Assembly (NCBI GenBank): GCA_963716725.1
Contig: CAVQUB010000013.1
Span: forward strand, 320,001-384,000
Length of the DNA: 64,000 nucleotides
From: an uncultured delta proteobacterium
Lineage (GTDB): Bacteria > Myxococcota_A > Polyangia > Polyangiales > Polyangiaceae
Reading direction: 5' to 3'
The notes beneath the pieces were generated by a model. It ran no database searches and was not told where the DNA came from. It saw only the letters and a program-made list of their open reading frames with translations. Numbering within the stretch: the stretch's first letter is position 1; each line of letters opens with the position of its first letter. This document shows, piece after piece, positions 5,478 through 48,338 of this stretch. Both the position numbers and the translations under genes were made by a program.

Positions 5478-6872
5478 ATGGCGATCCGCTTCACGTTGAA
5501 CGGCGAGAGCATCGAGCTCGACGACTTCGATCCCAACACGACCCTGCTCGGGTTTCTCAGGGCCCGGGGCCTCACCGGCAGCAAGGAGGGCTGCGCGGAG
5601 GGCGAGTGCGGCGCGTGCGCGGTGGCGCTGGTGCGACGCGACTCCCGAGGCAATGCCCGCTACGAGCCCGTGAACGGCTGCCTGATGCCCCTGGGCTCGT
5701 GTGCCGACCAAGAAATCGTGAGCGTCGAGGGCATCGCGCAGGGCGGCGCCTTGCACCCGGTCCAGGCCGCGATGATCGATGGCGGCGGCTCGCAGTGCGG
5801 GTACTGCACCCCGGGCTTCGTCGTCAGCTTGTTCGCCGAGTACTACCGGCCTGGGCGCGCCGAATACGACCCCGAGGCCATCGCCGGCAATCTCTGCCGC
5901 TGCACCGGCTACCGACCGATCCGGGAGGTCGCCGAGCGCCTGGGAGAACCCGCCGAGGACGATGCCTTCAAGAAGCGACTCGCCCTGGCACCGCCCGCGC
6001 TCTCATCGCTGCGGCACGAGTCGCCCACCGGACGCTTCCTACGACCGTCGACGCTCTCGGAGGCGCTGACGCTGCTCCAAGGCAGCTCCGACGCCGTGAT
6101 CGTGGCGGGCGGCACCGACGTCGTCGTGGAGGTCAACCAGCGGCATCGACGACATGGCAGCTGGTTGTCCCTCGAAGGGGTGAGCGAGCTCCGGAGTTTC
6201 GAGGTGACCTCGAGCGAGATCCGCATCGGCGCGGCGCTGTCGCTGAGCGAAATCGAAGAGCGCACCGAGCACAAGGTTCCGATGCTCGAGCAACTGTTCC
6301 CGCTCTTCTCGTCGCGCCTGATTCGGAATCGCGCCACGCTCGGCGGCAACCTGATGACCGCGTCGCCCATCGGGGACAGCCCACCAGCGCTGTTGGCGCT
6401 GGACGCGCAGGTCGAGCTGGCCAGCCTGTCCGGCGTTCGACGGGTAGCCTTGACCGACTTCTTCACGGGCTATCGCACCACCGTGGCCAAGGCCGGCGAG
6501 CTGTTGAGCGCGGTGCTGATCCCCCTGCCGCTGCCCGACGTGCAGCGCTTCTACAAAGTGAGCAAGCGGGTCGTCGACGACATCAGCACGGTGGCGGCAG
6601 CGTACTCGCTCCGGCTCGACGCCGCGGGCAAGATCACCACGGCGCGCTTGGCCTACGGCGGCGTGGCGGCAACGCCCGCCCGCGCACGCGATGCGGAAGC
6701 GGCGATGCTCGGACACTCGCTGGACCGCGAACTCGTGCAGCGGGTGACACCGCTGCTCGCCAGAGCCTTCTCGCCCATCGGTGATCACCGCGGGAGCGCC
6801 GACTACCGCGCCACCATGGTCGTGCGCCTCCTGGAGAAATTCTGCTTCGACTGCCAAGGGAACACGCCGTGA
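5478..6872 (+). CDS. xdhA: Xanthine dehydrogenase small subunit (2x[2Fe-2S] + FAD)
   Basis: KEGCAEGECGAC, QCGYCTPGF, GNLCRCTGY, AGGTD, IRNRATLGGN, YKVSKR..DDIS motifs. Confidence 0.95.
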   Translation: MAIRFTLNGESIELDDFDPNTTLLGFLRARGLTGSKEGCAEGECGACAVALVRRDSRGNARYEPVNGCLMPLGSCADQEIVSVEGIAQGGALHPVQAAMIDGGGSQCGYCTPGFVVSLFAEYYRPGRAEYDPEAIAGNLCRCTGYRPIREVAERLGEPAEDDAFKKRLALAPPALSSLRHESPTGRFLRPSTLSEALTLLQGSSDAVIVAGGTDVVVEVNQRHRRHGSWLSLEGVSELRSFEVTSSEIRIGAALSLSEIEERTEHKVPMLEQLFPLFSSRLIRNRATLGGNLMTASPIGDSPPALLALDAQVELASLSGVRRVALTDFFTGYRTTVAKAGELLSAVLIPLPLPDVQRFYKVSKRVVDDISTVAAAYSLRLDAAGKITTARLAYGGVAATPARARDAEAAMLGHSLDRELVQRVTPLLARAFSPIGDHRGSADYRATMVVRLLEKFCFDCQGNTP

Positions 6873-9191
6873 CTTTGCTGGGAAAACCGCTGCCCCACGA
6901 GAGCGCCCGGGAGCACGTCACCGGCGCCGCGCTCTACACCGACGATCTCGCCGGCCGCTTTGCCGGGCTGCTGCACGCCTGGCCCGTGACCGCCCCGCAC
7001 GCCCACGCCCGGGTGATCTCCGTCGAAACCGGCGACGCGCTGACGATCCCGGGCGTCGTCCGGGTGCTGACCGCCGAGGACGTGCCGGGAGAAAACCAAC
7101 TCGGCGTGGCCCAGGCCGACGAGCCGCTGTTTCCGTCGGAGGTCATGTTTCACGGCCAAGCCGTGGCGTGGGTGCTCGCCGAGAGCGAAGAGGCCGCGCG
7201 GCTCGGGGCGCTGGCTGTCGAGGTCGACTACGAAGCGCTGCCCGCGGTCCTCGGCTTCGAAGAAGCGCTCGAAGCCGGTGAGTTCCTGACCGAGGAGCTC
7301 CGCTTGGCTCGGGGCGACGCCAAGGCCGCCCTCGAAGCTGCGCCGCGCCGGCTCTCGGGGGAGCTGCTCGTGGGCGGACAGGAGCACTTCTACCTCGAGA
7401 CGCAGGCGGCGCTGGCCCACGTCGACGAGCACGGCCAGGTGTTCGTTCACTCGTCGACGCAGCACCCCACCGAGACCCAGGAGATCGTCGCGCGACGTGC
7501 TCGGCGCTGCACAAACACGCAGGTCACCGTGCAGTGCCTGCGCATGGGCGGCGCCTTCGGCGGCAAGGAGGTCGCAAGCCAACGCCTGGGCGGCCGTCGC
7601 CGCGCTCGGGCGCCGCCTGACCGGACGCCCGGTGCGCGTGCGGCTCAACCGCGCTCAGGACATGACGCATGACCGGCAAGCGGCACCGCTTCCTCGGTCG
7701 CTGTCGAGGTCGGCTTCGACGACGAGGGCGCGCTGCTCGCCCTGCGCATGCGAGCTCTTCGCCGACGGCGGCTGGAGCCTCGACCTCTCCGAGCCGATCC
7801 TCTACCGCGCGCTGTTCCACGTCGACAACGCCTACTGCATCCCCAACGTCGCGCGTCACGGGCCGCGTCGTGCGCACGCAACAAGACCTCGCAGACCGCC
7901 TTCCGCGGCTTCGGCGGCCCGCAGGGCATGCTCGTGATCGAGGAGATCATCGGACCGCATCGCGCGCACGCGCTGGCGCTCGACGCCGCATGACGGTGCG
8001 CGAGCGCAACTTCTACCGCGAAGGCGACACCACCCCCTACGGCACAGGCGGTGCGCGACGCCGAGCGCATTCCGCGCATCTGGCGCGAGCTGGTCGCATC
8101 GAGCAGCTTCAGCGAGCGCGTGGCGGCGAGATCGCCGACGTCCAACGCGACGCCACGCCGCACCGCAAGCGCGGCCTCGCCATCACGCCGGTGAAGTTCG
8201 GCATCTCGTTCACCACTTCGTTCTTCAACCAGGCCGGCGCGCTGGTGCTCGATCTACACGGACGGCACCGTGCAGATGAACCACGGCGGCACCGAGATGG
8301 GCCAGGGGCTGCACACGAAGATGCTGCAGATCGCCGGCGCACGCGCTCGGCGTGCCGCTCTCGAGCCGTGCGCCTGATGCCGACCAGCACCGACAAGGTG
8401 CCCAACACCTCGGCGACGGCGGCGTCGAGCGGCTCCGATCTGAACGGCGCCGCGGTGAAGGACGCCTGCGAAACGCTGCGCGCTCGCTTGGCCGCGGTCG
8501 CTGCCCGCGAGCTCGGCACGAGCGACGACCAGATCGTGTTCGACGACGGCAAGGTCTTCAGCAAGTCCGCCCCCGAGCGCTGCCTGACCTTCTCGGAGCT
8601 CACGCACCGGCATACCTCGAGCGGGTCCCGCTCTTCGCCACCGGCTTCTACCGCACCCCGGACATCCACTTCGACAAGGCTACGGGCAGCGGCAAGCCCT
8701 TCCACTACTTCGCCTACGGCGCCGCCGTGACCGAGGTCGAGGTCGACGGCTTCACCGGCATGTACGAGATCCGCCGCGTCGACATCCTGCACGACGTCGG
8801 CGACTCGCTGTCGCCGCTGGTCGATCGCGGCCAGATCGAGGGCGGCTTCGTTCAGGGCCTGGGCTGGCTGACCCTCGAGGAGCTGGTGTGGGCCCCGGAC
8901 GGCCGCTTCACCACGCCCAACGCTTCCACCTACAAGCTGCCGGGGCTCGGCGAGTGTCCACCGGTGTTCGAGGTCACGCTGCTCGAGCGGGCTGCGGATC
9001 CCGACGTCATCCACGGCAGCAAGGCCGTGGGCGAGCCGCCGCTCATGCTGGCGATCAGCGCGCGGGAGGCGCTGCGGCACGCCGTCGCCGCCTTCGGGGG
9101 GGATCACTCGGGCATCGTCGAGCTCGGATCCCCGGCGACGCCCGAGGCGGTGTTCTGGGCCATCGAGAAGCTCCGCGGGAAGTCCGGCTGA
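6869..9191 (+). pseudogene. xdhB: Xanthine dehydrogenase molybdopterin-binding subunit, broken by many frameshifts between about 7570 and 8620 (pseudogene or consensus error)
   Basis: Conserved XdhB blocks lie in alternating frames: [83 protein letters not shown]. Confidence 0.9.
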
Positions 9192-10960: not shown

Positions 10961-11635
10961 TCAGGCGGCGGCGACGGCTCGCTGAGCGACCAATTCGCTG
11001 AGGCGCCGCTCCAGCTTGTGGCGCTTGGTATAGACCGTGGCGACGCTGATGCCCATTCGCGCGGCGATGGCCTCGGGCGCCAGATCTTGCCCAAAGTAGA
11101 GCGCGAAGAACTCTCGCTCGCGGTCCGAGAGACCGGCGAGCACCTTGGTGACAATCTGGGCCTGCTCTCGCTCCCAGAGCTCTTGGTGCGGGTCCGGGCG
11201 GTCGCACTCCGTCTCGAAGATCTCGATGCGCGTGTCCACCGGACAACGCTTGATCCGGCGCAGGTGGTCGTAGGTCGCCTGCATGGCCATACGAGTGAGC
11301 CAGCTGCCCAAACGCGCTCCGCGAGTCGGATCGAAGGACCGGAGCTTCTGCTTGTCACGTGCGATGAGCGAGAGGCAGAGCTTGGCGTAGACCTCGCGCA
11401 CGTCGTCGGAGCCGGTCACCGCGCCAAAGCGCGAGAGGATGCGCCCGATGGCTCGGTGCAGAGGCGCCGCGTAGATCGAGTTGAACTCGCGCCAAGCGCA
11501 GGGCTCGTCGGCGACGAGGCGCGAGACAAACACGGCTTCTTGCTGAAGCTCGGCCTTCGCGGCGGGCTTCTTGGGGGCTCGAAAGGAAGTGGCTTGGATC
11601 TGCATGACGTTGCCGGCGCCTACAGCAACCGACAT
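10961..11635 (-). CDS. ECF-type RNA polymerase sigma-70 factor
   Basis: Region 2 (DDVREVY...FDPTRGARLGSWL) and region 4 (LSDREREFFALYF...EAIAARMGISVATVYTK); start may be ATG 11606. Confidence 0.88.
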   Translation of the reverse strand: MSVAVGAGNVMQIQATSFRAPKKPAAKAELQQEAVFVSRLVADEPCAWREFNSIYAAPLHRAIGRILSRFGAVTGSDDVREVYAKLCLSLIARDKQKLRSFDPTRGARLGSWLTRMAMQATYDHLRRIKRCPVDTRIEIFETECDRPDPHQELWEREQAQIVTKVLAGLSDREREFFALYFGQDLAPEAIAARMGISVATVYTKRHKLERRLSELVAQRAVAAA

Positions 11636-11719
11636 GCCAGCCCCGAGTGGGCCGTTTCCTCAGCATTTCCCCGATTTCGGCTGTGGCGCGCGCGCCGCAG
11701 GTGCCCCGAGATCCGGGGC

Positions 11720-11749
11720 GCGCAGACCGCATCACGGGGCGGTCTGCGC
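11720..11749. terminator. 11-bp perfect stem hairpin (possible terminator or RNA structure)
   Basis: GCGCAGACCGC-ATCACGGG-GCGGTCTGCGC, spanning the stop of the 11732-11995 ORF; no clear U-tract. Confidence 0.35.
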
Positions 11750-11995
11750 CTCGATGGAGGGCGGCGGGAGACTCGACCCCGGCGGCGGCCACACGCGATA
11801 CGCCTGAACCGGCGCAGTCTTCCCTTTCACGCTGAGCGGGGCCAGCGCCTGCTTCGGAAAATCGGTGGGCAGGTTCGGAACGCTGATCGCGATCGCTCCC
11901 AGCCAGAGCCAGAGCGCGACGCGCGGCAGGGGTCTCGGCACCCGCGCCGCCGGCGTGAGCACCGTGAGCGCGGACGATGGCTTCGCCGCAGGCAT
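11732..11995 (-). pseudogene. Internally deleted remnant of a membrane adenylate/guanylate cyclase gene
   Basis: 87-aa ORF: N-terminal hydrophobic segment (VALWLWLGAIAISV) fused in frame to LPTDFPKQALAPLSVKGKTAPVQAYRV, which resembles the C-terminal vKGk..pv.vY motif of class III cyclases. Confidence 0.55.
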
Positions 11996-12011
11996 CGGCA
12001 GCGAGACTACC

Positions 12012-13028
12012 TCAGTCGCCGCACTCCACCTTCGCAGTCGTGTCACGAATCCAGGCCTGCACACCGCGGAGATCCACTGAGCGATCGTTGTGCGGCATCG
12101 GTAGTCCGCGGACGAACCAACTGGCCAATCGGTCCGACTCCGCCATCGACGGCTGGGGACAGACGCCAAAGGGCAGCGCGACCTGATGCACAGTGCTGCA
12201 GCCCACCCCAGGATTGCCTGTGAAATTGTTGGGGTTTCGCAGGAGCTTGTAGATCAGGTAGCTGTTCTCGGGTCGGCCGCGATCGATGATCGGCATGTTC
12301 ACTCCGAGCCGCGGCGGGTTCTCGAGGGGCTGGCCCGAGTGGGCTCCGCTCTCGGTTTGGTGGGCCACGCGGTCGATGGCGGTCTGCGCGAGTCCTTGGG
12401 CGTTGTCGAGCCGCAGCCCCATGCGCGCGTCAGCTCCGCCATGACAGCTATTGCTCGAGCACCCGGCGCGTTTTTCGACCGGAATGCCAGGCGCGAGGGC
12501 CTCTAGGAGCTGGCAGGTGTCTTCGAAGGGCGGGAGGGTCGGAGAGGGAGGCGCCGTCGGCGCTTCTCGTGTACGGAAGTCGAAGGTGAGGGGGACGCCT
12601 GCCTCCGCGAGCGGCGCGCGGTCGAAGGCCCGGAAACCAAGGTCGTCTTCCTCCTTTGGCGAGAGCAGCTCGACGGTGTAACGCACGCCGGGCTCGAGCC
12701 GGGCTCCGGACGGCAGTCGATACACGAGCACCCGCTCAACCAGGTCGTACTCCGGCTGCGCGAAGACGCCGAGATCTTCGCTCCCGGTGTAGATGGCGAT
12801 GGATTGCCGGACCGCCGTCGACGGCAGTAAGTACCGGTCGAAGCGGAGCTCGAGCGCGGTCTCCATAGGTACGCCGCAGTCGTCCGGCGCCCCAAGCCCG
12901 CACTCCGTGCCTGCGCCCGGAGCGGGGTGCACGGCGACGATGTGGAGCGGGGGCCCCTGAGACGCCTGCAACGTAGGCGTGCCCTGATCGCAACCGATCA
13001 GTGCCAGCGCGATGAAGGCGAGCTTCAG
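12012..13028 (-). CDS. Lipoprotein with Ig-like (Big_5-type) domain and C-terminal cytochrome c-like domain with atypical CX4CH
   Basis: Signal KLAFIALALIGC; ELRFDRYLLP Ig-like strand pattern; CSSNSCHG...GLRLD...GRPENSYLIYKL...PMP. Probable CTG start overlapping the upstream TGA. Confidence 0.7.
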   Translation of the reverse strand: MKLAFIALALIGCDQGTPTLQASQGPPLHIVAVHPAPGAGTECGLGAPDDCGVPMETALELRFDRYLLPSTAVRQSIAIYTGSEDLGVFAQPEYDLVERVLVYRLPSGARLEPGVRYTVELLSPKEEDDLGFRAFDRAPLAEAGVPLTFDFRTREAPTAPPSPTLPPFEDTCQLLEALAPGIPVEKRAGCSSNSCHGGADARMGLRLDNAQGLAQTAIDRVAHQTESGAHSGQPLENPPRLGVNMPIIDRGRPENSYLIYKLLRNPNNFTGNPGVGCSTVHQVALPFGVCPQPSMAESDRLASWFVRGLPMPHNDRSVDLRGVQAWIRDTTAKVECGD

Positions 13029-13279
13029 CTCTCGGCGTACATCCGGAGCTGCTCGCGGACCGTTGCTTCGCTCACGCCGGTGCGGATGTGATCCTTCAGG
13101 CAGTCGGCCAGAGTGATCAGCACGTCGTCGATGCCCTTCTCCTCGATGATCTTCGAAAGAAGGGCGCGCGCCTCGCGGCTGTCGTCCTCGCGCAGGAACT
13201 CCCGCACCTTCTCGACGGAGATGTCCCCCTGAAAGTCCAAGTACATGTTTTCCAAGAGATAGCGGACGAGCTCCTTCAC
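13025..13279 (-). CDS. Small acidic helical hypothetical protein (84 aa)
   Basis: GGAGG RBS before GTG 13279; protein-like composition and GC3-biased codons. Confidence 0.75.
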   Translation of the reverse strand: MKELVRYLLENMYLDFQGDISVEKVREFLREDDSREARALLSKIIEEKGIDDVLITLADCLKDHIRTGVSEATVREQLRMYAES

Positions 13280-13417
13280 GCGGGGCCTCCTGCAAAAGGG
13301 GAACCAGCGCTGAAGGCGCCGGCGAAGCTTCGTAATACCTCCCACGGGATTGCGCGGGCAAGCGGATTGAGCCGGCGCGGTCGAATTTCGACGACCCAGG
13401 CGTTCTGAGCCGAGACG

Positions 13418-14803
13418 TCACCGGCACTCCTGCAGCTGGGGGTCGGCCGGATCGTGACAAACCAAGCACGGGCGCGCGTTCTTGCGGAGCGCCCCGCGGC
13501 AGCGGTCGCGGAAATTCCGGGGGTGCGGGTTGACTCCCTGTCCCCCGAAGCCGGAGTCGCCCACGCCGGGGGTGCTCGGACCAAACCCCCGGCCACCCCG
13601 CGCCGGAGTCGCGTGACAGGTCGCGCAGTCGCGCTCAACGTGACAGCTCGCGCAGGCGTTGATGTTTCGCTGTGCTTCCCAGGCGTGGTGCGCGGAGGAA
13701 CGTGGAGGGTTGGACCACAGGTCGGCAGGGGGGTGAAAGCGACCGCGCCCCGCGAAGTTGGCGTAGGGACCGCTCATGGCGACGCCCGCCCGCTGGTGGC
13801 AGCCGACGCAGAACGATTGCTGGCGGTGACAGCTCGTACAGCTCGGGTTGTTCTGACGGGCCGCCATGGGGTGCATGCTGATCCAGTCGTTGGGATGGAT
13901 CTTGCGCGGCCGAACCCGACCGTCATGACAGTCAGTGCAGAAGCGCGGCTGGTGGCAGGTTGCGCACAGCTGGCTGTCGTTGCCCGCCACCTGCTTGTGC
14001 CGCTCGATCCAGTCGGCTCCATGCCCCGAGTCGTGGAGCCACTGTGGAGGTTTCAGGCTCCCGGACGCGAACTGGGTCTTCATCACCCCGCCCTTCTCGG
14101 TCAAGTGACAGTTCAGGCACTCGCCCTTGGCCTTGCCTCGGGCCGGCCCGGGCATCTGGTGACAAGTGAAGCACCCTTTCATGCGCGGCAGCTGATCACG
14201 GGTGGCGAGCTCGATGTTCTCCACGGCGCCATGACACTGAGCGCAAGCGATGTTCCGACTGGCGTGCACCGCGTGGTTCATTCGCAGGTTCGGCTGCGGC
14301 ATCACCATGCGCGCCACTCGGTTGCCGTCGCCCGCTTTGTAGCCGACGTGGCAGAAGCCGCATTGAGCAATCAAGGCATCGTCGTCGGTGGTCACGGCGG
14401 ACAAGTCGCGGTGGTCGCTGCCATGACACGCGTCGCAGCGGGTGGGCTTGGGCAAGAGCGAGTCCTGGCCGCGCTTGCTGGTCTTCGCCCGGTCGTGGCA
14501 GGTGGTGCAGCTGAGCCCGAGCTCCTTGACGTGTTTCTTGTGATTGAAGCGGATCGTCAGCTGCTGCGGCGGGAAGATCACCGGGCTCGGGCCGCCGTCC
14601 CCATGGACCGCACCGGGCGGGCGGTCGTGGAGCGGGACGCTGGCATTTCCCGGCAGCGGCGCCAGGCCTCGAACGCCAAGAGCCGGGGATGGCGGCGCGA
14701 CGGCGGGTGCGGCCCCCGAAGGCGCGGCGCGCGCTGCGTCGAGGCCCAAGCCGAGGCCGAGGGCCACGGTAGAGCTCAGGCAGAGCAGCCACAGTCCCCT
14801 CAT
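13418..14803 (-). CDS. Exported multiheme c-type cytochrome (cytochrome c3-like), 13 CxxCH motifs
   Basis: Signal peptide; CTTCH, CDACH, CGFCH, CAQCH, CFTCH, CLNCH, CATCH, CTDCH, CTSCH, CVGCH, CASCH, CATCH, CLVCH. ATG overlaps the upstream stop. Confidence 0.92.
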   Translation of the reverse strand: MRGLWLLCLSSTVALGLGLGLDAARAAPSGAAPAVAPPSPALGVRGLAPLPGNASVPLHDRPPGAVHGDGGPSPVIFPPQQLTIRFNHKKHVKELGLSCTTCHDRAKTSKRGQDSLLPKPTRCDACHGSDHRDLSAVTTDDDALIAQCGFCHVGYKAGDGNRVARMVMPQPNLRMNHAVHASRNIACAQCHGAVENIELATRDQLPRMKGCFTCHQMPGPARGKAKGECLNCHLTEKGGVMKTQFASGSLKPPQWLHDSGHGADWIERHKQVAGNDSQLCATCHQPRFCTDCHDGRVRPRKIHPNDWISMHPMAARQNNPSCTSCHRQQSFCVGCHQRAGVAMSGPYANFAGRGRFHPPADLWSNPPRSSAHHAWEAQRNINACASCHVERDCATCHATPARGGRGFGPSTPGVGDSGFGGQGVNPHPRNFRDRCRGALRKNARPCLVCHDPADPQLQECR

Positions 14804-16317
14804 TTGAGCACCGTGAGGTCGAGCGTGGCCAGCAAGCGATAGCGCTGACCGACGAGTCGGTTCGTGCTGTGCTCCCACTCGAGACCGAAGCGGGTTTCGT
14901 CGAAGGGCTTGATGCCGCCTCCGGCAACGTAAGAGAAGCTGGTCGCCGAGCGGTCCGTGCGAAGACCATCCTCCCAGTCGTAGAGCGATACGATGGCGAG
15001 GGTGTCGTAGAGGCCGCGGTCGAAGGCTTGATTCAGCGTCAGGTCACTGCCAACTCGGTGGCCGCGCTTGCCGGTCTCCGTCATGCCGCGCAGACCGAGA
15101 TTGCCATCGGACCAGCGGTACCGGCCCGCGAGGTTCCCGACGAAGTCCGTGAGCCGTCCGGTCTCGCTGCGATCAGGATCGCGTCCGGCTTGTTCGACGA
15201 TGCCGTAGCTGCCGCTGTCTCCTTCGGTTTCGAAGATCTTGGCTCCGCTGCTCAGCGCCACGTCAAATCGGGGCGACGGGCGCCACTCGGCTCGACCGAG
15301 CAGCGTGGTGATCCCGCTGTGCGAAAACCAATTCCAGATCGAGTCCCCGTCGAAGGTCGGGTAGCTGTAGTCGTAGTCGGCGCCGACCGAGATCGCCGAG
15401 GTAGTGTACCAGTCGAGGGCCAACGCGCGATCGCTCACCACCTGGCTGTAGAAGTCGTAGACCAAGTTGCCGCGGACCGCGCCCAGCGACGCTTCGCTGG
15501 CGCGGAGCGAGTATCCGATGCGTTCGCTGGATACGCGATCGCCGCCCACACGCTGATAGCCATCGCCGGCGTCCGGAAAGGGTGAGACGACCACACGATC
15601 ACGATTGACGACCTTGCGATACGAGAGACGGCCGTGGACGAAGTGCACGCCGGTGGTCTCGATCGCGAAGCCGAAGGCCGGCGCCAGCTTCGACTCGCGC
15701 AAAAAATAGGGAACTTGGTTCAGCTCGAGTTCTTGGCGGTTGCCGCGATAGACGCCGTCGGACGCGTAGCGTTCCGTACCAAGCAGCAGCGGCAGACCCC
15801 CGCGCTGCTCGAAGCCCGCGTAGGCTTCGACCTGAACGTAGGCCGGCGTGGTGAGCCGCACGAGCCCGCCGTCGAAGGACCACCAACCGAGAGAGTCGGT
15901 CACGTACTGGCGCCCGGCGCGAAAGCCCACGAAGCCGCCCAGGTAGTTGCGGCCCTCGAGGTACGCGTACATCACGTCCACCGGCGCTTGTTCGAGATCC
16001 GGAACGAAGGTGCTGGGCTGGCGCGGATTGCGCTCTTCTCCCTCCTTGCCGAAATCTGCGTCGAGTCGCAGCCGCGCCTTGAACGAGAGCTGGGGGCCGA
16101 AGGGCACGAATTCGCCCTGCATGTCGTAGACGTGGAGCGCGAGCGCTTGCGTGTAGCGCCTGCGCCGCACGACGGGATCACCCCACGGCGAGCGCAAGGT
16201 GTAGAACTGCGCGTCGCTGGTCGCTGCCACCTCTGCTTCGTACGCGTGCGCAGGTCCGCCGGTGAGCGGTAGCGTCAACGCGCTCAGAATGATCAGGCTC
16301 GCGCGACGACCTCTCAT
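14800..16317 (-). CDS. Predicted outer-membrane beta-barrel (porin-like) protein
   Basis: Signal peptide ending AHA; many amphipathic strands rich in Gly/Tyr/Phe/Trp (FRAGRQY, FDGGLVRL, VEAYAG, FGLEWEH); terminal strand YRLLATLDLTVLK. Confidence 0.75.
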   Translation of the reverse strand: MRGRRASLIILSALTLPLTGGPAHAYEAEVAATSDAQFYTLRSPWGDPVVRRRRYTQALALHVYDMQGEFVPFGPQLSFKARLRLDADFGKEGEERNPRQPSTFVPDLEQAPVDVMYAYLEGRNYLGGFVGFRAGRQYVTDSLGWWSFDGGLVRLTTPAYVQVEAYAGFEQRGGLPLLLGTERYASDGVYRGNRQELELNQVPYFLRESKLAPAFGFAIETTGVHFVHGRLSYRKVVNRDRVVVSPFPDAGDGYQRVGGDRVSSERIGYSLRASEASLGAVRGNLVYDFYSQVVSDRALALDWYTTSAISVGADYDYSYPTFDGDSIWNWFSHSGITTLLGRAEWRPSPRFDVALSSGAKIFETEGDSGSYGIVEQAGRDPDRSETGRLTDFVGNLAGRYRWSDGNLGLRGMTETGKRGHRVGSDLTLNQAFDRGLYDTLAIVSLYDWEDGLRTDRSATSFSYVAGGGIKPFDETRFGLEWEHSTNRLVGQRYRLLATLDLTVLK

Positions 16318-16359
16318 GGGGGAGCGAGACCCCAGCATCGTCGAGCGAATTGACGGCTG

Positions 16360-17325
16360 TCAACTCGCCGCGTGCTGCGCGGACTCGCCGCCGCTCGCCC
16401 ACCGGCCCAACTGCACGAGATCGGCGGGGGGCACGAACTCCGCCAGCTCGTCGAGCGCGCCCACCCGCTTGACGTCGGCGCCGAGCTTGAGGGCACAGGC
16501 CCGCGCGACGACCGCGACCAAGGGGTGGGGCGAGGCGGTCAGCGGCATCAGCTCGCCGAGCAGTGATCTCTCGCCGAGCTCGGCCGCGATCAAGGCGGCC
16601 AGCGGCCTGGCATCTGCCGGACCCGCGCCCTCGCCGGTGATCAGCCGAGCCAGCACACTCCGTGTCTCGGGACAAGCAACGCTCCCCGGGTGGCGGTAAC
16701 TCTTCGGTGAGAGCGCCAGCCGCTCTTCGAGTTCCCCGGAGCACAACAGCCAATGAGCCTGCGCGAGCAACCTCTCGCACACGGGCTCGAAGGCGTCATC
16801 GACACCCGTCGCACCGTCCAGGTCGAGCGCCAGCGGTCGGCCGGCTTCCTCGGCGTAGCGGTGCAGGTTGGCCTCGAGTCCTTCGAGCGCCACGTCCCCC
16901 GGCGCGCGGCCCCCCAGCGTCTCCTGGGCCGTGCGGATCTTCACTACGCTCCAGCGCGTCGAGGGCGTCGCTTGATCCATCTCGTGCACGGCCTCCACCT
17001 GTACCTCGCAGACCGCAGCCCAACGCAAGACGCGCGGCTCGCCTTCCGAATGCACCAACACCCCCCAAGGCACGATGGACATCCGCGCTTCGCGCATGCA
17101 CTCCCTCGACAGCACCGGACCCAGCGCGCGGTTCAGGAGCACGACACCCGCGGCCGCCAGCGCCACGGCCAGGGCCACGCTCACCCAGTCCAGTCGGCCG
17201 GCGATCAGCAGCGTGACGCAGAACGCCGAAGTGCCCACGGCGACCCGGGCGCGGCGCGCGCGCCGCGAGTCCGGACCCGGCTCGACGCCGACGAGGCGAA
17301 AGTCCGGTGGAGGGGGCGACACCAC
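16360..17325 (-). CDS. Hypothetical membrane protein (two N-terminal TM helices, HEAT-like C-terminus)
   Basis: Two hydrophobic segments; co-directional with neighbours with short gaps. Confidence 0.65.
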   Translation of the reverse strand: MVSPPPPDFRLVGVEPGPDSRRARRARVAVGTSAFCVTLLIAGRLDWVSVALAVALAAAGVVLLNRALGPVLSRECMREARMSIVPWGVLVHSEGEPRVLRWAAVCEVQVEAVHEMDQATPSTRWSVVKIRTAQETLGGRAPGDVALEGLEANLHRYAEEAGRPLALDLDGATGVDDAFEPVCERLLAQAHWLLCSGELEERLALSPKSYRHPGSVACPETRSVLARLITGEGAGPADARPLAALIAAELGERSLLGELMPLTASPHPLVAVVARACALKLGADVKRVGALDELAEFVPPADLVQLGRWASGGESAQHAAS

Positions 17326-17373
17326 CCCTCGAGGTTAGCACCTCCACCGAACCTGGCCGCCGCGGGCTGTCCC

Positions 17374-18735
17374 TCAGGGGAAGAGCTCGCGCTCTTCGTA
17401 GACCTGCCGCAGGCGCTCGAGCGCCACGCAGTAGCAGGCCGTGCGGAAATCGGTCTGATACTCGCGTGCGGCGTGGACCATGCGGCTGTACGCGTGCTCC
17501 ATCGTTTCTTTGAGCCGGCGGTCCACCTCTGCAAGGTCCCACGACTCGCTGCGGCGATTCTGCACCCACTCGTAGTAGCTGACAGTCACGCCGCCGGCGT
17601 TGGCCAGCACGTCCGGCAAGATGTCGATGCCTTTCTTGAGCAGCGCAGCCTCGCCTTCCGGATTGCAGGGTCCGTTGGCGCCCTCGGCGACTAGCCGCAC
17701 GGTCAGCGCGTCCGCTTCGGCCGGCCCGATCTGATTCTCGAGAGCCGCGGGCACGAAGATGTCGGCCTGGACGCCGAAGAACTCCTCGCGGGTGATGGCC
17801 TTTCCGTTGGGGTAGCCAGCGATGCTGCCCTTGTCCTCGACGTACTTCTGCAGGCGATGCGAGTTGAAGCCCTCGGGGTTGTACAGGTACCCCGTGTGGT
17901 CACCGACCGCCGACAGCGACACGCCCATGTGGCTCAGCAACACCGCGGTGTGAGAGCCCACGTTGCCGAAGCCCTGGACGATGAGCTTCTTGCCTTCGAG
18001 GTCGAACTGATTTCGCCGCGCCCAATCGACGATGCAGTAGACGACGCCCTGCCCCGTCGCCTTCTCGCGACCTAGGGTTCCGCCGCTGGCGATGGGCTTT
18101 CCGGTCACGACGCCGAGCACGGCCTGCTTCTGCACCATGCCCACGGTGTTCATGTAGGTGTCCATGGCCCACGCCATGGTCTGCGCGTTGGTACCCATGT
18201 CGGGCGCGGCGATGTCGTAGTCCGGGCCGATGTTGCCCCCGAGCGCGTGGAAGAAGCGGCGGGTGACGCGCTGGAGCTCGTTGCGACTGACGGTGCGCGG
18301 GTTGAACTTGATGCCGCCCTTGCCGCCGCCAAAGGGCAGGCCCATCAGCGAGCACTTGTAGGTCATCAGCGAGGCGAGCGCCTTGAAGTCGTCCAGGCTC
18401 GCGCTCTCGTGAAAGCGCATCCCGCCCTTGTACGGGCCGAGGATATTCGAGTGTTGGATGCGATAGCCCTTGAAGAGCCTCACCTGCCCGTCGTCCATGC
18501 GAACGGGGAAGTGACAGATGATCTCGTTCTTGGGCTGGCTCAGGATCTGGTGCACGTAGTCCGGCACCTTCGTCAGCTTGGCCGCCTTGTCGAGGTATCG
18601 CTGGACGACGTTGAAGAATTCGTAGCGCGGCGCGCCGGGCGGCAGGTTCGTCGGCGAGGAGATGTTCTCCTCTTCGAAGCGGCGGGACGATGGTGCGGGT
18701 TCTTTGATTGCCGGTTGGGATGGGGTGACGCTCAT
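17374..18735 (-). CDS. gdhA: Glu/Leu/Phe/Val dehydrogenase (glutamate dehydrogenase)
   Basis: GPYKGGMRF, LPFGGGKGG, APDMGT, GREKATGQG, QGFGNVG, EGANGP, PDVLANAGGVTVSYYEWVQN. Confidence 0.95.
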   Translation of the reverse strand: MSVTPSQPAIKEPAPSSRRFEEENISSPTNLPPGAPRYEFFNVVQRYLDKAAKLTKVPDYVHQILSQPKNEIICHFPVRMDDGQVRLFKGYRIQHSNILGPYKGGMRFHESASLDDFKALASLMTYKCSLMGLPFGGGKGGIKFNPRTVSRNELQRVTRRFFHALGGNIGPDYDIAAPDMGTNAQTMAWAMDTYMNTVGMVQKQAVLGVVTGKPIASGGTLGREKATGQGVVYCIVDWARRNQFDLEGKKLIVQGFGNVGSHTAVLLSHMGVSLSAVGDHTGYLYNPEGFNSHRLQKYVEDKGSIAGYPNGKAITREEFFGVQADIFVPAALENQIGPAEADALTVRLVAEGANGPCNPEGEAALLKKGIDILPDVLANAGGVTVSYYEWVQNRRSESWDLAEVDRRLKETMEHAYSRMVHAAREYQTDFRTACYCVALERLRQVYEERELFP

Positions 18736-18861
18736 TGGGGAGGGCTCCTCGTAGCGCTCGGGATCTTGCGCACGGGCTCAAAACGCGGTCAGCCCCAATT
18801 TTGACAACGCGCCGCGTCAGCGCGGTCACCCGTCAACCTGCCGCGCAACGGATGCGGGGAG

Positions 18862-19677
18862 TCAGCGGAAGACGGTGTAGAGGTACACGATCGGGGCGAC
18901 GATCAAGAGTGCGTCGACTCGGTCGAGCAGGCCGCCGTGTCCCGGGACTATCCAGCCGCTGTCTTTGATACCCGTCGAGCGCTTGAGCAACGACTCGACC
19001 AGGTCGCCCATCTGCCCAAGCGCTCCGCCGAAGAGGGCGAGCGGCAAGGCGTGAACGAGCGGAATGTCCGGCAGGTACCACAGGCTCGCGACCACGGCGC
19101 CCAGACACGCACCCGCCAGCGAACCGTAGAAGCCCTCGCGGGTCTTCTTGGGGCTGATCGTCTCGTACAGCTTGGTCTTGCCCAAGAAGCGCCCGGCGAA
19201 GTAGCCGCCGGTGTCGGCCATCCAGGCGAAGGTCAGAGTCATCACCACCCAGCGTGGTCCATCGTCGCCCATGTCCCGGCGGAGCAGGGCGATGGTGCAG
19301 AACAGCGCCCCGACGTAGATGGGCGCAGCGACGTTCGCCATGATTCGCAGCGCCGCGGTGTCGATCTGACCGAGGCGCCAGAGCGGCAACAGCACGCCGA
19401 TGATGGGCACCGCCAGGAACACCGCGAGCAAAACGCGCTGATCCTTCGTTGCAAAGTACACGGCGGCACTCACCGCGAGGGTGAGCAGAACCCCGATGCC
19501 TTGGGCGACTCGATCTCCCGGATGCGTCATGGCGAAGAGCTCGCTGGCACCGACTGCCGTGGCGCACGCCACCAAGACGTAGAACCCCCAGGCCGGGCCC
19601 ACGAAGAGCAACGCCAACAGGAGCGGCACGAACACGACGGCCGTCAGGAGGCGTAGGGTGAGGTTGCTCTTGGCCAA
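18862..19677 (-). CDS. cdsA: Phosphatidate cytidylyltransferase
   Basis: DTGGYFAG...ISPKKTREG...GDLVESLLKRSTGIKDSG.IVPGHGGLLDRVD signature; multi-TM. Confidence 0.95.
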   Translation of the reverse strand: MAKSNLTLRLLTAVVFVPLLLALLFVGPAWGFYVLVACATAVGASELFAMTHPGDRVAQGIGVLLTLAVSAAVYFATKDQRVLLAVFLAVPIIGVLLPLWRLGQIDTAALRIMANVAAPIYVGALFCTIALLRRDMGDDGPRWVVMTLTFAWMADTGGYFAGRFLGKTKLYETISPKKTREGFYGSLAGACLGAVVASLWYLPDIPLVHALPLALFGGALGQMGDLVESLLKRSTGIKDSGWIVPGHGGLLDRVDALLIVAPIVYLYTVFR

Positions 19678-29534: not shown

Positions 29535-31847
29535 TCAGCGGCCCAGTGACTCGGCGCGATTCACGATGCGCGGCGTCAAGAAGATCACGAGCTCGCTGCG
29601 TGAATCACTGGCTCGTCGCCGTTGGAAGAGCAGGCCGAGCAGCGGGATGTCGCCGAAAAACGGGACCTGATCGAGGTTACGACCCGTGTTGCGAGTGAAG
29701 ATGCCACCGATCACCGCGGTGTGGCCGTCCATCACCAGCAGGTTGGTCTCGGCCTCGCGCTTGAGGATCGTCGGATCGCCTCGGGCCGAGGTCTGGTTGA
29801 AGTCGGGCTCGTCGCGGTTGATCTTGACCTTCATGCCGACGCTGCCGTCGGCCGTCACGTGGGGCTTCACCAGGAGTTGCAGCTTGGCCTCTTGGAAGGT
29901 CGTCTGCACGCCCTGTGCGCTGACCTGGCAGAAGGGGATCAACGTGCCCTGGGAGATGCGCGCCTCCTGGTTGTCGAGCGTCAGGATGCGCGGGCTCGAC
30001 AGGATGCGCAGCATGCCGCTGGCCTCGGCGGCCGAGAGACGCACGGCCAGGTTGATGTTGTTGTCGATGGAACCGAAGGACAGGCCGATGGCGCCACCTT
30101 GCCCGGTGCCCACCGCGGCGGGCAGGTTCACCGCGAAGTTCGGGTTCGCCACGGTGTTGCTGAAGGGCGAGAGACCGGCGGTCGGTGTATTCGCGTCGCT
30201 GGCGCCGCCGACTACGCCCACGGAGTTCGGGAAAGCGAGCCCCGTCGGGTTGCCCGTCGCGCCGCTGAATGAGGCGTCGCCGCCCCACTGGATGCCCACG
30301 TCGCGCAGATAGCGGCTGGTCGCCTCGACGATTCGGGCCTCGACCAGCACCTGCGGCGTCTGGGTGTCGAGGGATCGTGTGAGCTCTTCGATTTGGTTCA
30401 GATTGCCGGCAACGTCTCGGACGATCATCACGTTGGTGCGCTCGTCGACGGCGATCGATCCGCGCTCGCTGAGCAGATCCTTGGCGCGGGACTGGATCTC
30501 CGCCGCCTCGGCGTAGCTGACGGGGATGAGTCGCGTCTCGATGGGCGCGAGCTGCATCTCTTGCTTTCGCCGCGCGATGGCCATCTCGCGCTCTTTCTCC
30601 AGATCCGCGAGTGGCGCGACGCGGATCATGTTGCCCTGCCGCACCATGCCGAGGCTCTTTGCCTGCAGCACCACGTCCAGCGCCTGATCCCAGGGCACGT
30701 TGCGCATCCGGATGGTGACACTACCGCTGACGTTGTCGGCGGTGACGATGTTCACGCGCCCGACGTCCGCGAGCAGGCGGAGCACGTTGTGGATGTCGGC
30801 GTCCTTCAGATCGAGGTCGATGCGCCGACCGGTGTAGCCCGCCCGTCGGGTTTGCCCCAGCAGACTGGGTGTGACGGCGCTGGCCTGGTCGGCCTCGGTG
30901 GACTTCTCCACGGCTCCGGGGACGTAGCCGGCGTGGACCTGCGGGATGTCGGAGTACGAGTCCTCGACGTGCACGGTCTTGGTCTTGCGAGCGGCGCCGC
31001 CATCCTTCGCCACGCCAGTTCGGGTGGACGGCAGCGTGCCCGGCGCGAAGAACGACCACACCAGCGTGGTGCCGCTCTTGGCGATCTGCGCGGTGCTTGC
31101 AGAGTCGCTCTCGACCTCGAGGATCACGTCTTTGCTCTTCGGGTCGACGAAGCTCGAGACGGCGCTGACTCGTCCGCCGAAGGCCGACACGTCCAGCTTG
31201 CGGACCAGCGCTTCGGGCAGGGTCGCGCCTTCGACGACCAGGACGAAGCGCCCTCGACCGCTGCTGCTCTGGCGGAACTTCGCCGAGTGAGACAGATCGA
31301 TCAAGACCTTGTCTTCGAGCGTGCCATGCTCGAATCGAACGTCCGAGATCCGCGCTGCCACGTCTGCCACCGGCTCGGCCGCCGGGCGCCCGACGCGCTT
31401 CGTGCCAGACTCCTCCATGACGCCGGCCTTGCCCGGCACCAGGCTGATCACCAGCTTGTCGTTCTCTGCCCTGATGGCGTACTGCGCCTCTTCCATCAAC
31501 GTCACGAGCACGCGGGTGGTCTTCGTGTCGCCGATCTTGAAGGCCTGAGCCATCACGCCACCCACGACGCCGGTACGGCGGGTGATGGCTGCCGGCGCCC
31601 CCTTGATGTCGGCGCCGGGCACATCGACGATCAAGCGTCGGCCGTTCTGGTCGAGGCGCGCCGTGTACGTCGGGCGAGACGTGAAGCTCACCACCACGGC
31701 CGCGCCGCCGGAATCCGCGGCGTTCACGCGGATGTCGGTAGCGTGGCGCTGCCCTTCCGCAGCTTCTGCGACATTGGGTGCCACGAGCAATGAAAGCTCG
31801 AAAGCTGCTGCGATCACCATCGCAAGACGGAACGAAGTCGACCTCAT
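29535..31847 (-). CDS. pilQ: Type IV pilus secretin PilQ with N-terminal AMIN domains
   Basis: YTGRRIDLDLKDADI, VPWDQALD, VDERTN, PQVLVEARIVE, SSPRILTLDN, VPFFGDIPLLGLLF, ELVIFLTPRI. Confidence 0.97.
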   Translation of the reverse strand: MRSTSFRLAMVIAAAFELSLLVAPNVAEAAEGQRHATDIRVNAADSGGAAVVVSFTSRPTYTARLDQNGRRLIVDVPGADIKGAPAAITRRTGVVGGVMAQAFKIGDTKTTRVLVTLMEEAQYAIRAENDKLVISLVPGKAGVMEESGTKRVGRPAAEPVADVAARISDVRFEHGTLEDKVLIDLSHSAKFRQSSSGRGRFVLVVEGATLPEALVRKLDVSAFGGRVSAVSSFVDPKSKDVILEVESDSASTAQIAKSGTTLVWSFFAPGTLPSTRTGVAKDGGAARKTKTVHVEDSYSDIPQVHAGYVPGAVEKSTEADQASAVTPSLLGQTRRAGYTGRRIDLDLKDADIHNVLRLLADVGRVNIVTADNVSGSVTIRMRNVPWDQALDVVLQAKSLGMVRQGNMIRVAPLADLEKEREMAIARRKQEMQLAPIETRLIPVSYAEAAEIQSRAKDLLSERGSIAVDERTNVMIVRDVAGNLNQIEELTRSLDTQTPQVLVEARIVEATSRYLRDVGIQWGGDASFSGATGNPTGLAFPNSVGVVGGASDANTPTAGLSPFSNTVANPNFAVNLPAAVGTGQGGAIGLSFGSIDNNINLAVRLSAAEASGMLRILSSPRILTLDNQEARISQGTLIPFCQVSAQGVQTTFQEAKLQLLVKPHVTADGSVGMKVKINRDEPDFNQTSARGDPTILKREAETNLLVMDGHTAVIGGIFTRNTGRNLDQVPFFGDIPLLGLLFQRRRASDSRSELVIFLTPRIVNRAESLGR

Positions 31848-32001
31848 CCTCAGGCTCCGATCGTCGGTGCGAGCGAGCTGGCTCTATCCTGCTCGATCAC
31901 CCGTTTCACCATCGTAGCGACGCGGCCGCGAGACGAACAAATTCCAGGCCAACTCGGCTGCGCTTCATGAAGCGCGCCCGACCTGCCCTTCCACCGAAAC
32001 G

Positions 32002-32532
32002 TCAGGGCCGGGCGTCGAGATCGAGGTCCAAATTTCGCTCGTCGGCGACCGCGGAGAGCTCCCGACGCAGGGTCGCGAGAGCCACGTCGCGCGGCACGTG
32101 CAGCAGCGCTTCCAGCAGAAATGCCGGGGTTCCGGTCAGCGGTTGGTGGACCACGCCGGTCTCGAGGGAGGCCACGTTCACCCCGAGCCGCGCTACCACC
32201 GCCGTCACGGCCTGCACGATGCCCGGCTGGTCCAGACCCACGACGCGGAGCTCGTAGGCCAGCATCCCGGCCTTCGTGCCCGGTGGCTCGGTGTCGCGGA
32301 AATGGCACTCGACGCCCAGCGGGGCCAAGGCGGAGCGGCCGCGCTCCTCGGCGGCTCCGAGCTCGGCTACCGTGCCCGACAGAAGCACGAGCATGGCAAA
32401 CTCGCCGCCCAAGACCGCCATGCGACTGTCTTCGAGGTTCGCGCCGGCCTGGTGGACCGCTGACGAGATCGCTTGGACCAGTCCCGCTCGATCGGGACCG
32501 ATGGCGGTGAGCACCTTGAACCGCTTGGACAT
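32002..32532 (-). CDS. GcvR-like tandem ACT-domain protein
   Basis: TAIGPDRAGLV...NLEDSRMAVLGGEFA and VVGLDQPGIV ACT motifs. Confidence 0.88.
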   Translation of the reverse strand: MSKRFKVLTAIGPDRAGLVQAISSAVHQAGANLEDSRMAVLGGEFAMLVLLSGTVAELGAAEERGRSALAPLGVECHFRDTEPPGTKAGMLAYELRVVGLDQPGIVQAVTAVVARLGVNVASLETGVVHQPLTGTPAFLLEALLHVPRDVALATLRRELSAVADERNLDLDLDARP

Positions 32533-32585
32533 GCCCCGACCATGGCGCGCCGGGGCGCCGGGCGCCAGGGTCTAGCGAAGCGGGC

Positions 32586-33170
32586 TCAGTGCTCGGAGAC
32601 GAGCGTCCCCTCGGGGCGCAGCGGGATGACCTTGGTCGCGCTGGGGACGTCCGGGTTCTGGGGATCTTCGCGGATCAGCACGACATCGCCGTCGCGGATT
32701 CGGTCCACCCGCCAGTTGATCTCGTAGGCCCGGGCCGTGGTGGTGCTGGCCTGGACGACCTCCGCGCGGCCGACGAACTGGCCACGCTGGACCACGTGAC
32801 CCTTCCCGGTGGGGTCGACGAGCATCGCCTTGGCCGGATCGATCCCGGTCACGATGCCGACGAGCTTGAGTTCGTCGACCGAGTACTGGTCGAGCAGAAC
32901 CTCGCGCTGCGACTTCACCTTGCCGCGTGCCTCTTCCACGAACATGCTCGCAAAGGAGCGGAAGGGGTCGCGGCTCTTCTCGCTCTCCGCGAACTCGGCC
33001 TCCTGAAAGTCGATCTTTGGAGGACCGACGGCCGCGTCGCCGGCCCCCGCGTCGCCGGCCTGAGAAGTCGCGGGGACGCGCACGCTCGGCGCGCTCGTGG
33101 TTGGAGCATCGCTGCCGCAGCCAGAGACGAGCACGACCAGGAGGAGCGGCATTGCCGAGACGCGGATCAT
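32586..33170 (-). CDS. pilP: Type IV pilus lipoprotein PilP
   Basis: Lipobox VSGC; RDPF, ELKLVGIV, AMLVDPTG.G..V..G..VG; operon position. Confidence 0.92.
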   Translation of the reverse strand: MIRVSAMPLLLVVLVSGCGSDAPTTSAPSVRVPATSQAGDAGAGDAAVGPPKIDFQEAEFAESEKSRDPFRSFASMFVEEARGKVKSQREVLLDQYSVDELKLVGIVTGIDPAKAMLVDPTGKGHVVQRGQFVGRAEVVQASTTTARAYEINWRVDRIRDGDVVLIREDPQNPDVPSATKVIPLRPEGTLVSEH

Positions 33171-47798: not shown

Positions 47799-48241
47799 AG
47801 CTCTTTTCCGATCTGGCGAGCAGCGTGCAGCTGCGCTTCGAGCCAGTCGATAGACTCTTCTTCTTCTTTCAAGATGGCCGCCAGAAGCTCACGTGTTCCG
47901 TGGTCGCCTTTGGCCACGCAGAGCGCGATGCCTTTGTTCAGGCGGGCCCGCGCCTCGACCTCGACGGCGAGATCGAGCTCGTGCTGCTCGATGGGATCTT
48001 CGCCGACGCGCACCGGGTACAAGCGCTGCATATTCGGGGTGCCGTCCAAGAACAGGATGCGTTCGATCACGGTGTCGGCATGCCGCATCTCTTCGATCGA
48101 CTCCTCGCGCTTCTTCTTGGCCAGCCGCGGATAGCCCCAGTTGCCGCACATCTTGGCGTGCACGAAGTACTGGTTGATGGCGGTCAGCTCTGCGCTGAGC
48201 AGGTCGTTCAAGAGCTCGATGACTTCGGGGTCGCCTTTCAC
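47771..48241 (-). CDS. bfr: Bacterioferritin
   Basis: KGDPEVI..LN..L..ELTAINQYFVH, ESIEEMRHA..IERILFLDG.PN, IDWLE; GGAGG RBS before GTG 48241. Confidence 0.95.
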   Translation of the reverse strand: MKGDPEVIELLNDLLSAELTAINQYFVHAKMCGNWGYPRLAKKKREESIEEMRHADTVIERILFLDGTPNMQRLYPVRVGEDPIEQHELDLAVEVEARARLNKGIALCVAKGDHGTRELLAAILKEEEESIDWLEAQLHAARQIGKELYLSEQLTG

Positions 48242-48338
48242 GCATTCCTCCAGGGGCGGAGCGTAGTGTCCCCGACCTCCAATGCGTACCGCCAATCCGA
48301 CGGGGCAAAATCACCTGGAAAATGGGGCCTGTCATTTT

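Follow-up and report, generated by a model that had tools for sequence, protein, structure and literature searches.

Introduction

Most work on extracellular electron transfer concerns iron oxidisers and anaerobic reducers of metals. In the porin–cytochrome (Pcc) clusters, a porin-like protein with 18-22 trans-outer-membrane motifs is encoded next to a periplasmic cytochrome that carries 5-14 haems. Anaeromyxobacter and Ca. Kuenenia have two-gene forms in which the cytochrome has 12 or 14, and atypical haem motifs (CX3-15CH) occur in Pcc-associated outer-membrane or lipoprotein cytochromes (Shi et al. 2014, PMC4245776). In this report we describe four co-directional genes on the minus strand, between 16317 and 12012 of a 64,000-nucleotide stretch of DNA (the window), which encode an outer-membrane barrel, a 13-haem cytochrome, a small acidic protein and a lipoprotein. 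The window covers positions 320,001 to 384,000 of contig CAVQUB010000013.1 (GenBank assembly GCA_963716725.1), from an uncultured member of the Polyangiaceae, and its G+C content is 64-72%. We hold with moderate confidence that the four genes are a conserved module of Polyangia that builds a porin–cytochrome electron conduit across the outer membrane.

Barrel relatives were sought in 185,579 species genomes and found in 451 of them. The locus counts given below refer to the best 80 of these 451 loci, in which the module genes were sought by tblastn with the window proteins as queries. Sequence comparisons were based on alignments of 30 close barrel relatives (A1), 32 cytochromes (A2), 35 lipoproteins (A3), 46 distant barrel relatives (A4) and 12 intergenic spacers (A5), the last from loci whose proteins are only 45-85% identical. 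The features of the module, with the basis of each in brackets, are as follows (aa, amino acids; nt, nucleotides; ORF, open reading frame).

14800..16317, minus strand: barrel, 505 aa, with a signal peptide and no plug domain (ORF, AlphaFold2 and Foldseek)
14800..14803, minus strand: ATGA stop/start overlap of the barrel and cytochrome genes (sequence and 74 loci)
13418..14803, minus strand: cytochrome c, 461 aa, Sec-exported, with 13 CxxCH motifs (ORF, motifs and profiles)
13335..13362, minus strand: spacer motif CTTGC-N19-GTAT, promoter-like by position (invariant columns of A5)
13287-13291, minus strand: AGGAG, invariant, 8 nt upstream of a GTG start (A5)
13025..13279, minus strand: acidic protein, 84 aa, without a signal peptide (ORF, GTG start and codon statistics)
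13025..13028, minus strand: CTGA overlap between the TGA of the small ORF and a CTG in the lipoprotein frame (sequence and locus comparison)
12012..13028, minus strand: lipoprotein, 338 aa, with a lipobox, a Big_5-type Ig-like domain, a Pro-rich linker and a divergent monohaem domain (A3)
12441-12461, minus strand: haem motif CSSNSCH (CX4CH) of the lipoprotein (sequence)

An earlier note on this DNA, made from the letters alone, had described a barrel gene with a signal peptide, coupled through the ATGA at 14800-14803 to an exported cytochrome with 13 CxxCH motifs and followed in the same direction by a small acidic protein and by a lipoprotein with an Ig-like and a CX4CH cytochrome-like domain. 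This gene content was borne out in every part, on the minus strand, with the motifs counted directly in the 13418-14803 product, the small protein found to be acidic, and the Ig-like domain recognised as Big_5 in homologues of the lipoprotein. The note had also taken the genome to be myxobacterium-like, and the relatives that are named are indeed of Polyangiaceae or Polyangia. The checks that it called for, on the fold of the barrel and on the co-conservation of barrel and cytochrome, were run, and both came out in its favour, as detailed below. Its interpretation was thereby supported in part; a seat of the cytochrome in the barrel, a surface position of the lipoprotein and a use in metal or humic respiration or in redox exchange with prey are putative.

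Comparison with known electron conduits

On our best reading, the layout of the module comes closest to the two-gene Pcc clusters of Anaeromyxobacter, which belongs to the same phylum (Myxococcota). As in the OmbB-OmaB-OmcB system of Geobacter, a porin-like gene adjoins a periplasmic multihaem gene, and both products carry signal peptides. The 13 haems of the cytochrome fall within the 5-14 reported for Pcc clusters and near the 12 or 14 of the two-gene clusters, and the CX4CH of the lipoprotein is an atypical haem motif in a lipoprotein cytochrome, as in the published description (PMC4245776). This likeness is one of layout. The module also differs from Pcc clusters in several respects. The barrel model has ~22-24 strands, by an AlphaFold2/DSSP count, against 18-22 by hidden Markov model prediction in the same source (PMC4245776); the lipoprotein carries one haem, against ~12 in OmcB; an 84-aa cytoplasmic protein belongs to the module; the cytochrome is ActA-like towards its N terminus; and the named relatives are all Polyangia, with no Anaeromyxobacter among them.

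The module also shares its general plan with MtrCAB of Shewanella and with the MtoAB (with MtoD) and PioABC systems, in which a barrel, a periplasmic multihaem wire and an extra redox partner are clustered. We take the small single-centre partners of the latter two, the monohaem cytochrome MtoD and the high-potential iron-sulfur protein PioC, to be parallels of the monohaem lipoprotein. In sequence, however, no match to MtrB/PioB, MtrA/DmsE or MtrC/OmcA was found with Pfam, NCBIfam or PDB profiles, libraries in which we assume an MtrB/PioB model to be present. The cytochrome gave no NCBIfam match of the MtrA/DmsE type at E ≤ 1, and the sole OmcA/MtrC match, which also fell on this 13-haem protein, had E 0.089 and a score of 11.2 bits where 209 is the cut-off. 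Differences extend to the haem counts (13 here versus 10; a single-haem lipoprotein here versus decahaem MtrC/OmcA), to the redox partner, which here is a lipoprotein with an Ig-like spacer domain, and to the barrel, which has 505 aa, while MtrB, MtoB and PioB are described as much larger than Pcc porins (PMC4245776).

The earlier note had proposed a new conduit of a non-Mtr kind. The second half of this proposal agrees with the absence of any Mtr-type sequence match in the three libraries. The first half stands in that the sequence family and the variant are new, but not as a claim to a new kind of conduit, because two-gene clusters of a porin with a 12- or 14-haem cytochrome have already been described in Anaeromyxobacter and Kuenenia (PMC4245776). 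No description of the Polyangia module was found in a literature search, with subscription journals and supplements outside its reach.

A third relationship is to respiratory complexes of the inner membrane. ActA, a pentahaem protein, works with the monohaem, lipid-anchored ActE in alternative complex III (ACIII). Residues ~75-233 of the cytochrome match ActA by profile and by structure, and QrcA of the Qrc complex by NCBIfam, and the pairing of a multihaem protein with a lipid-anchored monohaem cytochrome is also seen in ACIII. Unlike in ACIII or Qrc, no ActB-F or Qrc partner genes adjoin the module (Pfam, 48 ORFs of the window), the cytochrome has seven extra C-terminal haems without a known relative, and its gene is coupled to that of an outer-membrane barrel. 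The module is distinctive in its private barrel family, an N-terminal cytochrome module that appears ActA-derived, a monohaem Ig-lipoprotein, an embedded cytoplasmic protein and its restriction to Polyangia.

Conservation of the four-gene module

The cytochrome gene lies directly downstream of the barrel gene in 76 of the 80 loci, which is all 76 with enough flanking sequence; in the four loci without it, the contig stops no more than 269 bp from the barrel. In 67 of 74 loci the two genes overlap in frame by 4 nt, as ATGA, GTGA or TTGA. The small gene was found in 72 of the 80 loci and the lipoprotein gene in 67 (67/67 with enough flank), every miss being at a contig end. Where the records of these genomes name a taxon, it is mostly Polyangia or Myxococcales; four record titles deviate, one being of a Gemmatimonadaceae metagenome-assembled genome and the others among several proteobacterial labels. 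Cultured carriers include Polyangium fumosum DSM 14668 (locus L080) and P. jinanense SDU13 (locus L074).

The flanking genes are not conserved with the module: across the 80 loci, GDH was found in 30, CdsA in 26 and a sigma factor in four.

The outer-membrane barrel

The longest ORF for the barrel runs over 14800-16338 and encodes 512 aa. A database protein identical to it at 100% (P0001) begins at the second Met and has 505 aa, and the gene was therefore taken as 14800-16317. The signal peptide, MRGRRASLIILSALTLPLTGGPAHA/YEAEV, ends at AHA/YEAEV. An AlphaFold2 model built from alignment A1 (pLDDT 74.6, pTM 0.67) is an all-beta barrel with 24 DSSP strand elements, which start at residue 27, right after the signal peptide; two of them are short, giving ~22-24 strands. 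An N-terminal plug is absent from the model, and three long loops, at 88-112, 174-211 and 367-385, are of low confidence. When the model was compared with the PDB using Foldseek, all 44 matches listed (ranks 1 to 50) were outer-membrane barrels with probability 1.00, including Occ/OprD porins, FimD/PapC ushers and PfeA (E ~1e-7, TMq 0.35-0.50); MtrB was not among these 44.

By sequence, the barrel stands apart from described families. Its only Pfam match, to OMP_b-brl, was below threshold (18.1 bits versus a cut-off of 28.7), NCBIfam gave no match, and profiles from A1 and A4 searched against PDB sequences returned nothing below E 0.17, with no MtrB chain at E ≤ 10. The 46 distant members of A4 yielded two weak OMP_b-brl matches and one weak LptD match (E 0.0023) in Pfam, and none of these diverse members matched an Mtr-type family at E ≤ 0.01. 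A HMMER search of 1.84 billion representative proteins placed 383 clusters in the family at E ≤ 1e-3, 233 at 1e-10 and 80 at 1e-30. The named relatives, those in the deepest clade sampled included, are each a 'hypothetical protein' of Polyangiaceae, Myxococcales or Polyangia. A further search was seeded with P0209, picked from a quick tree of barrel representatives, and all six of the records returned that name a taxon were Polyangia. An Atlas search likewise recovered only Myxococcota clusters without Pfam families. By these sequence criteria, the barrel family is compact, uncharacterised and restricted to Polyangia.

The thirteen-haem cytochrome

The cytochrome has exactly 13 CxxCH motifs, with no CX3CH and no CX4CH. 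Translation of the whole window in six frames (128,000 residues) gave 15 CxxCH motifs, 13 of them in the cytochrome frame and 2 elsewhere; the cluster therefore lies far beyond chance. The number is kept in 69 of 71 complete copies, five incomplete copies having been left out; the exceptions are a truncated ORF with 7 motifs (L002) and a copy with 12 (L054). Throughout A2 all 13 haem motifs are invariant, as are 12 His residues outside the motifs (H88, H91, H131, H177, H180, H261, H269, H303, H311, H357, H373 and H427), and H372 is nearly so (at least 90%). These 12 invariant and one near-invariant His residues could give bis-His ligation of every haem, and since they suffice for all 13, we read the protein as a pure electron wire rather than an enzyme, with no obvious open catalytic haem.

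This pattern bears on another account of the locus, in which the module would be a periplasmic redox enzyme or sensor, for example in oxidant detoxification or reductive iron acquisition, and the barrel its substrate channel. The conservation of the four genes across the sampled family, amid housekeeping genes, would fit a core physiological role of this kind; the haem site of the lipoprotein weakly resembles that of the Fe(II) oxidase FoxE (E 0.0021), and a ferritin gene is present in the window, though distant (47771-48295). Against this, all 13 sites are CxxCH with enough invariant His for bis-His ligation, there is no CxxCK and no obviously ligand-free catalytic haem, and a catalytic domain was found by Pfam and NCBIfam in none of the four proteins. 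We consider this account very improbable.

The two halves of the cytochrome differ in their relationships. In Pfam, the N-terminal half matched Cytochrome_C7 (1.1e-15) as well as the CIII and c3_2 families, and the best NCBIfam match of the protein was QrcA (3.3e-7), below its cut-off. Alignment A2 searched against the PDB detected ActA of ACIII in four solved complexes (8k9e_A, 3.2e-14; 6lod_A, 3.7e-14; 6f0k_A, 5.4e-11; 6btm_A, 1.4e-10); these matches are confined to profile positions 60-216, and c7/PpcA was matched weakly. The ActA/QrcA/c7-like part thus comprises residues ~75-233 and the first six haem motifs. An AlphaFold2 model of the cytochrome reached pLDDT 60.6 overall and 75-89 in this part, and Foldseek again brought up these four ActA chains, with 6btm_A at E 3.5e-3, and no other credible match. 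For the C-terminal part, with its seven haems and three doubled CxxCH-x4/5-CxxCH units, neither the PDB profile search nor Foldseek detected a relative of known structure. Homologues of the cytochrome are annotated 'cytochrome c3 family protein'.

The N terminus carries a predicted helix at residues 2-25, followed by a Pro/Ala-rich linker of variable length, and in most homologues AxA-type cleavage sites follow the hydrophobic stretch. Cys8 (~14780-14782) lies in the middle of the hydrophobic core of the signal peptide and recurs in nearly all homologues (A2 columns 10-16), in contexts such as LALA-C-ALAV and LAFG-C-LMAL; these are non-canonical as a lipobox and have further hydrophobic residues behind the Cys. 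The segment may be cleaved, lipidated or retained as an anchor.

The relationship to ActA supports a different placement of the cytochrome. The 13-haem protein would in that case be a periplasmic or inner-membrane-anchored carrier or store of the aerobic chain, an extended ActA-like module acting with the lipoprotein, and it would not enter the barrel, which would be a co-expressed channel or anchor point. Such a placement would accord with ActA as the sole solved relative and QrcA as the best NCBIfam match, with a helix and variable Pro/Ala linker that resemble a membrane tether, with the Asp at position +2 of the lipoprotein (see below), which means inner-membrane retention by the E. coli rule, and with the aerobic life of the hosts. 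However, most homologues have AxA-type sites past the hydrophobic stretch, no actB-F-like genes were found nearby in the Pfam survey of the window, and the constant presence upstream of a plug-less barrel of a private family, with its 4-nt overlap in 67 of 74 loci, would be left unexplained. We judge this placement unlikely.

The small acidic protein and the lipoprotein

The cytochrome gene and the small ORF are separated by a spacer of 138 nt. The motif CTTGC-N19-GTAT, which lies ~55 nt upstream of the GTG of the small ORF, is invariant in the 12 loci of A5; it failed the sigma-70 criteria of a consensus scan, which over 11500-18900 reported no promoter-like site and, as its sole terminator-like site, one within the sigma-factor gene further downstream. 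By its conservation and position, the motif may be a candidate internal promoter or operator of the pair formed by the small ORF and the lipoprotein gene.

The small protein has a pI of 4.75, with 19 Asp and Glu versus 13 Lys and Arg. In 58 copies of its ORF, mismatches per site by codon position are 0.19, 0.10 and 0.45, and because of this pattern we regard the ORF as a real coding gene. The GTG start is present in 54 of the 58 copies. The protein is the most conserved of the module (55-95% identity, 72 loci); it has no Pfam or NCBIfam family, and in an Atlas search it resembles Myxococcota hypothetical clusters only.

In 53 of 58 copies the last four letters of the small ORF are CTGA, and in 59 of 66 loci this CTGA shares the reading frame of the lipoprotein. 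The window copy of the lipoprotein gene lacks an ATG, GTG or TTG close to its lipobox, and in 47 of the 66 loci none occurs within the 12-45 codons before the lipobox Cys; the CTG of the CTGA seems to be the only plausible start of the lipoprotein. The pattern points to either conserved CTG initiation or termination-reinitiation, and automatic annotation would probably mis-start the gene. The CTGA-coupled CTG start is of small separate interest for gene annotation in high-GC genomes.

The lipoprotein begins with a short hydrophobic signal peptide and the lipobox LIGC, whose Cys13 is invariant in 35/35 sequences of A3; the other invariant residues are C195, H196, M311 and P312. Big_5 (PF13205) was detected in 17 of the 35 lipoproteins at E ≤ 0.01, the strongest match reaching 8.6e-7, and the number rose to 27 when the threshold was relaxed to E ≤ 1. 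The window copy itself has no Big_5 match at E ≤ 1, and its Ig-like domain is assigned by homology through A3. All Pfam matches of the haem domain are below threshold: the window copy matches PSCyt1 at E 0.01 (16.9 bits versus a cut-off of 22), and among the 35 lipoproteins PSCyt1 was matched by seven (E ≤ 1), Cytochrome_CBB3 by three and Cytochrom_C by one. The haem motif is CX4CH in 20 of the 35, CX2CH in 13 and CX3CH in 2, and because 13 homologues have the canonical CX2CH, we regard CX4CH as a variant of a true haem site. From these invariants, the lipoprotein is probably a monohaem cytochrome, His/Met-ligated through the invariant Met-Pro.

When the A3 profile was searched against the PDB, the sole sequence touched was FoxE (5mab_A, E 0.0021), over positions 188-224 and at the haem-binding site only. 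FoxE is the Fe(II)-oxidising dihaem cytochrome of Rhodobacter ferrooxidans, and the match of the lipoprotein to it is short.

The residue at +2 after the lipobox Cys is Asp in 30 of the 35 lipoproteins, the window copy included. In Myxococcus xanthus, a Lys at +2 is the signal for the inner membrane and an Ala at +7 directs lipoproteins to the matrix (PMC3222651). The window lipoprotein has neither +2 Lys nor +7 Ala, and its sorting residues are ambiguous.

Under the rules of M. xanthus such a protein would go to the outer membrane by default, and this is one of the grounds for an arrangement in which the partner in the barrel lumen would be the lipoprotein, either exported and held at the surface or plugging the barrel as LptE plugs LptD, while the 13-haem protein would feed in electrons from the periplasm. 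A plug-less barrel of ~22-24 strands needs a lumen occupant, all 67 loci with enough flank contain the lipoprotein gene, and one of the 46 barrel members gave the weak LptD match (E 0.0023). However, translational coupling links the barrel gene with the 13-haem gene and not with the lipoprotein gene, which is paired in this way with the gene of the small cytoplasmic protein and has a separate conserved motif upstream, and the membrane cannot be spanned with one haem. We therefore find this arrangement quite improbable.

A proposed model for the conduit

In the porin–cytochrome conduit that we favour, the cytochrome would be made in step with the barrel and threaded into it, as MtrA is in MtrB, so that its 13-haem chain would bridge the periplasm and the cell exterior. 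The lipoprotein, held on a membrane by its lipid and spaced by its Ig-like domain, would pass electrons to the wire or take them from it. Through the CTGA coupling, the small cytoplasmic protein would be made at a constant ratio to the lipoprotein, for which it may be a chaperone or regulator. Electrons could flow outward, to Fe(III), Mn(IV) or humics, or they could enter the aerobic chain, with Fe(II) or reduced humics as donors. In aerobic hosts, a single, probably high-potential (His/Met) haem partner would suit inward flow, or an exchange with the pool of aerobic cytochrome c, no less than it would suit metal respiration, and MtoD of the Mto system is presumably a parallel for such a single-haem partner in inward flow.

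Several observations weigh against a conduit. Contact between the barrel and the cytochrome is something that we infer, and the overall shape of the cytochrome cannot be read from its model, in which pLDDT falls below 50 at residues 280-367. The only detectable cytochrome relatives of known structure are ActA proteins, subunits of an inner-membrane complex, and the N-terminal hydrophobic helix could be an uncleaved inner-membrane anchor, as in ActA. The +2 Asp of the lipoprotein is an inner-membrane retention signal in E. coli. The spacer motif upstream of the small ORF suggests two transcription units and not a single operon. The nearest named Atlas clusters of the barrel (BBP2_2, EpsX and OMP_b-brl) are polysaccharide-export-type barrels, although the scores of these matches, 0.91-0.92 with 159-165 shared features, are in the chance range. 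A Pfam survey of 48 ORFs across the 64-kb window found no inner-membrane quinol dehydrogenase and no further cytochrome gene. Finally, cultured Polyangia are aerobes, and anaerobic metal respiration is therefore not expected.

A more specific form of the conduit, which we put forward tentatively as possible but short of probable, is one of the Polyangia's own design. The barrel would sheath a 13-haem wire with an ActA-derived periplasmic end, and, together with the Ig-spaced monohaem lipoprotein and the CTG-coupled small protein, would link the aerobic chain to extracellular partners such as minerals, humics, lignocellulose oxidation chemistry or prey. If this were true, an aerobic respiratory chain would be plugged directly into extracellular redox partners, and a conduit in this group, with its cellulose degraders and its predators of oxic soil, would broaden the settings and purposes known for such wiring. 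The ActA module of a respiratory complex would then be connected with outer-membrane conduits, and structural work would gain a new barrel family and a new 13-haem wire.

Genomic neighbourhood

The 321-aa product of 16360-17325 (minus strand), encoded between the GDH and barrel genes with short gaps, has two predicted N-terminal membrane helices and no family. As a candidate fifth component of the module it was rejected: a profile found it in 15 of 70 loci, and it is missing in the two closest relatives. A gene at 10961-11635 (minus strand), located 376 bp downstream of the lipoprotein gene and on the same strand, encodes a sigma-70-family protein with regions 2 and 4; its presence in only 4 of the 80 loci led us to reject it as a regulator of the module.

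The remainder of the window is made up of housekeeping genes, among them a secretin with pilM- and pilO-family genes, xanthine-dehydrogenase-type genes, RtcB, LolA and NnrS, and an Rfam scan of the whole window gave no match. The type IV pilus assembly genes lie at 29535-35501 on the minus strand and include an AMIN-domain secretin (29535-31847), PilO (33167-33790) and PilM (34425-35501). The ferritin gene at 47771-48295 lies far from the module. The xanthine-dehydrogenase-type genes, at 5478-9191 on the plus strand, look fragmented: the FAD/2Fe-2S subunit is encoded by 5478-6872, the ORFs 6869-7672 and 7669-8730 (plus strand) each give only a partial match to MoCoBD_1/MoCoBD_2, and an additional ORF with high G+C at third codon positions lies nearby at 8352-9191. 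This fragmentation may reflect frameshifts or an artefact of ORF calling.

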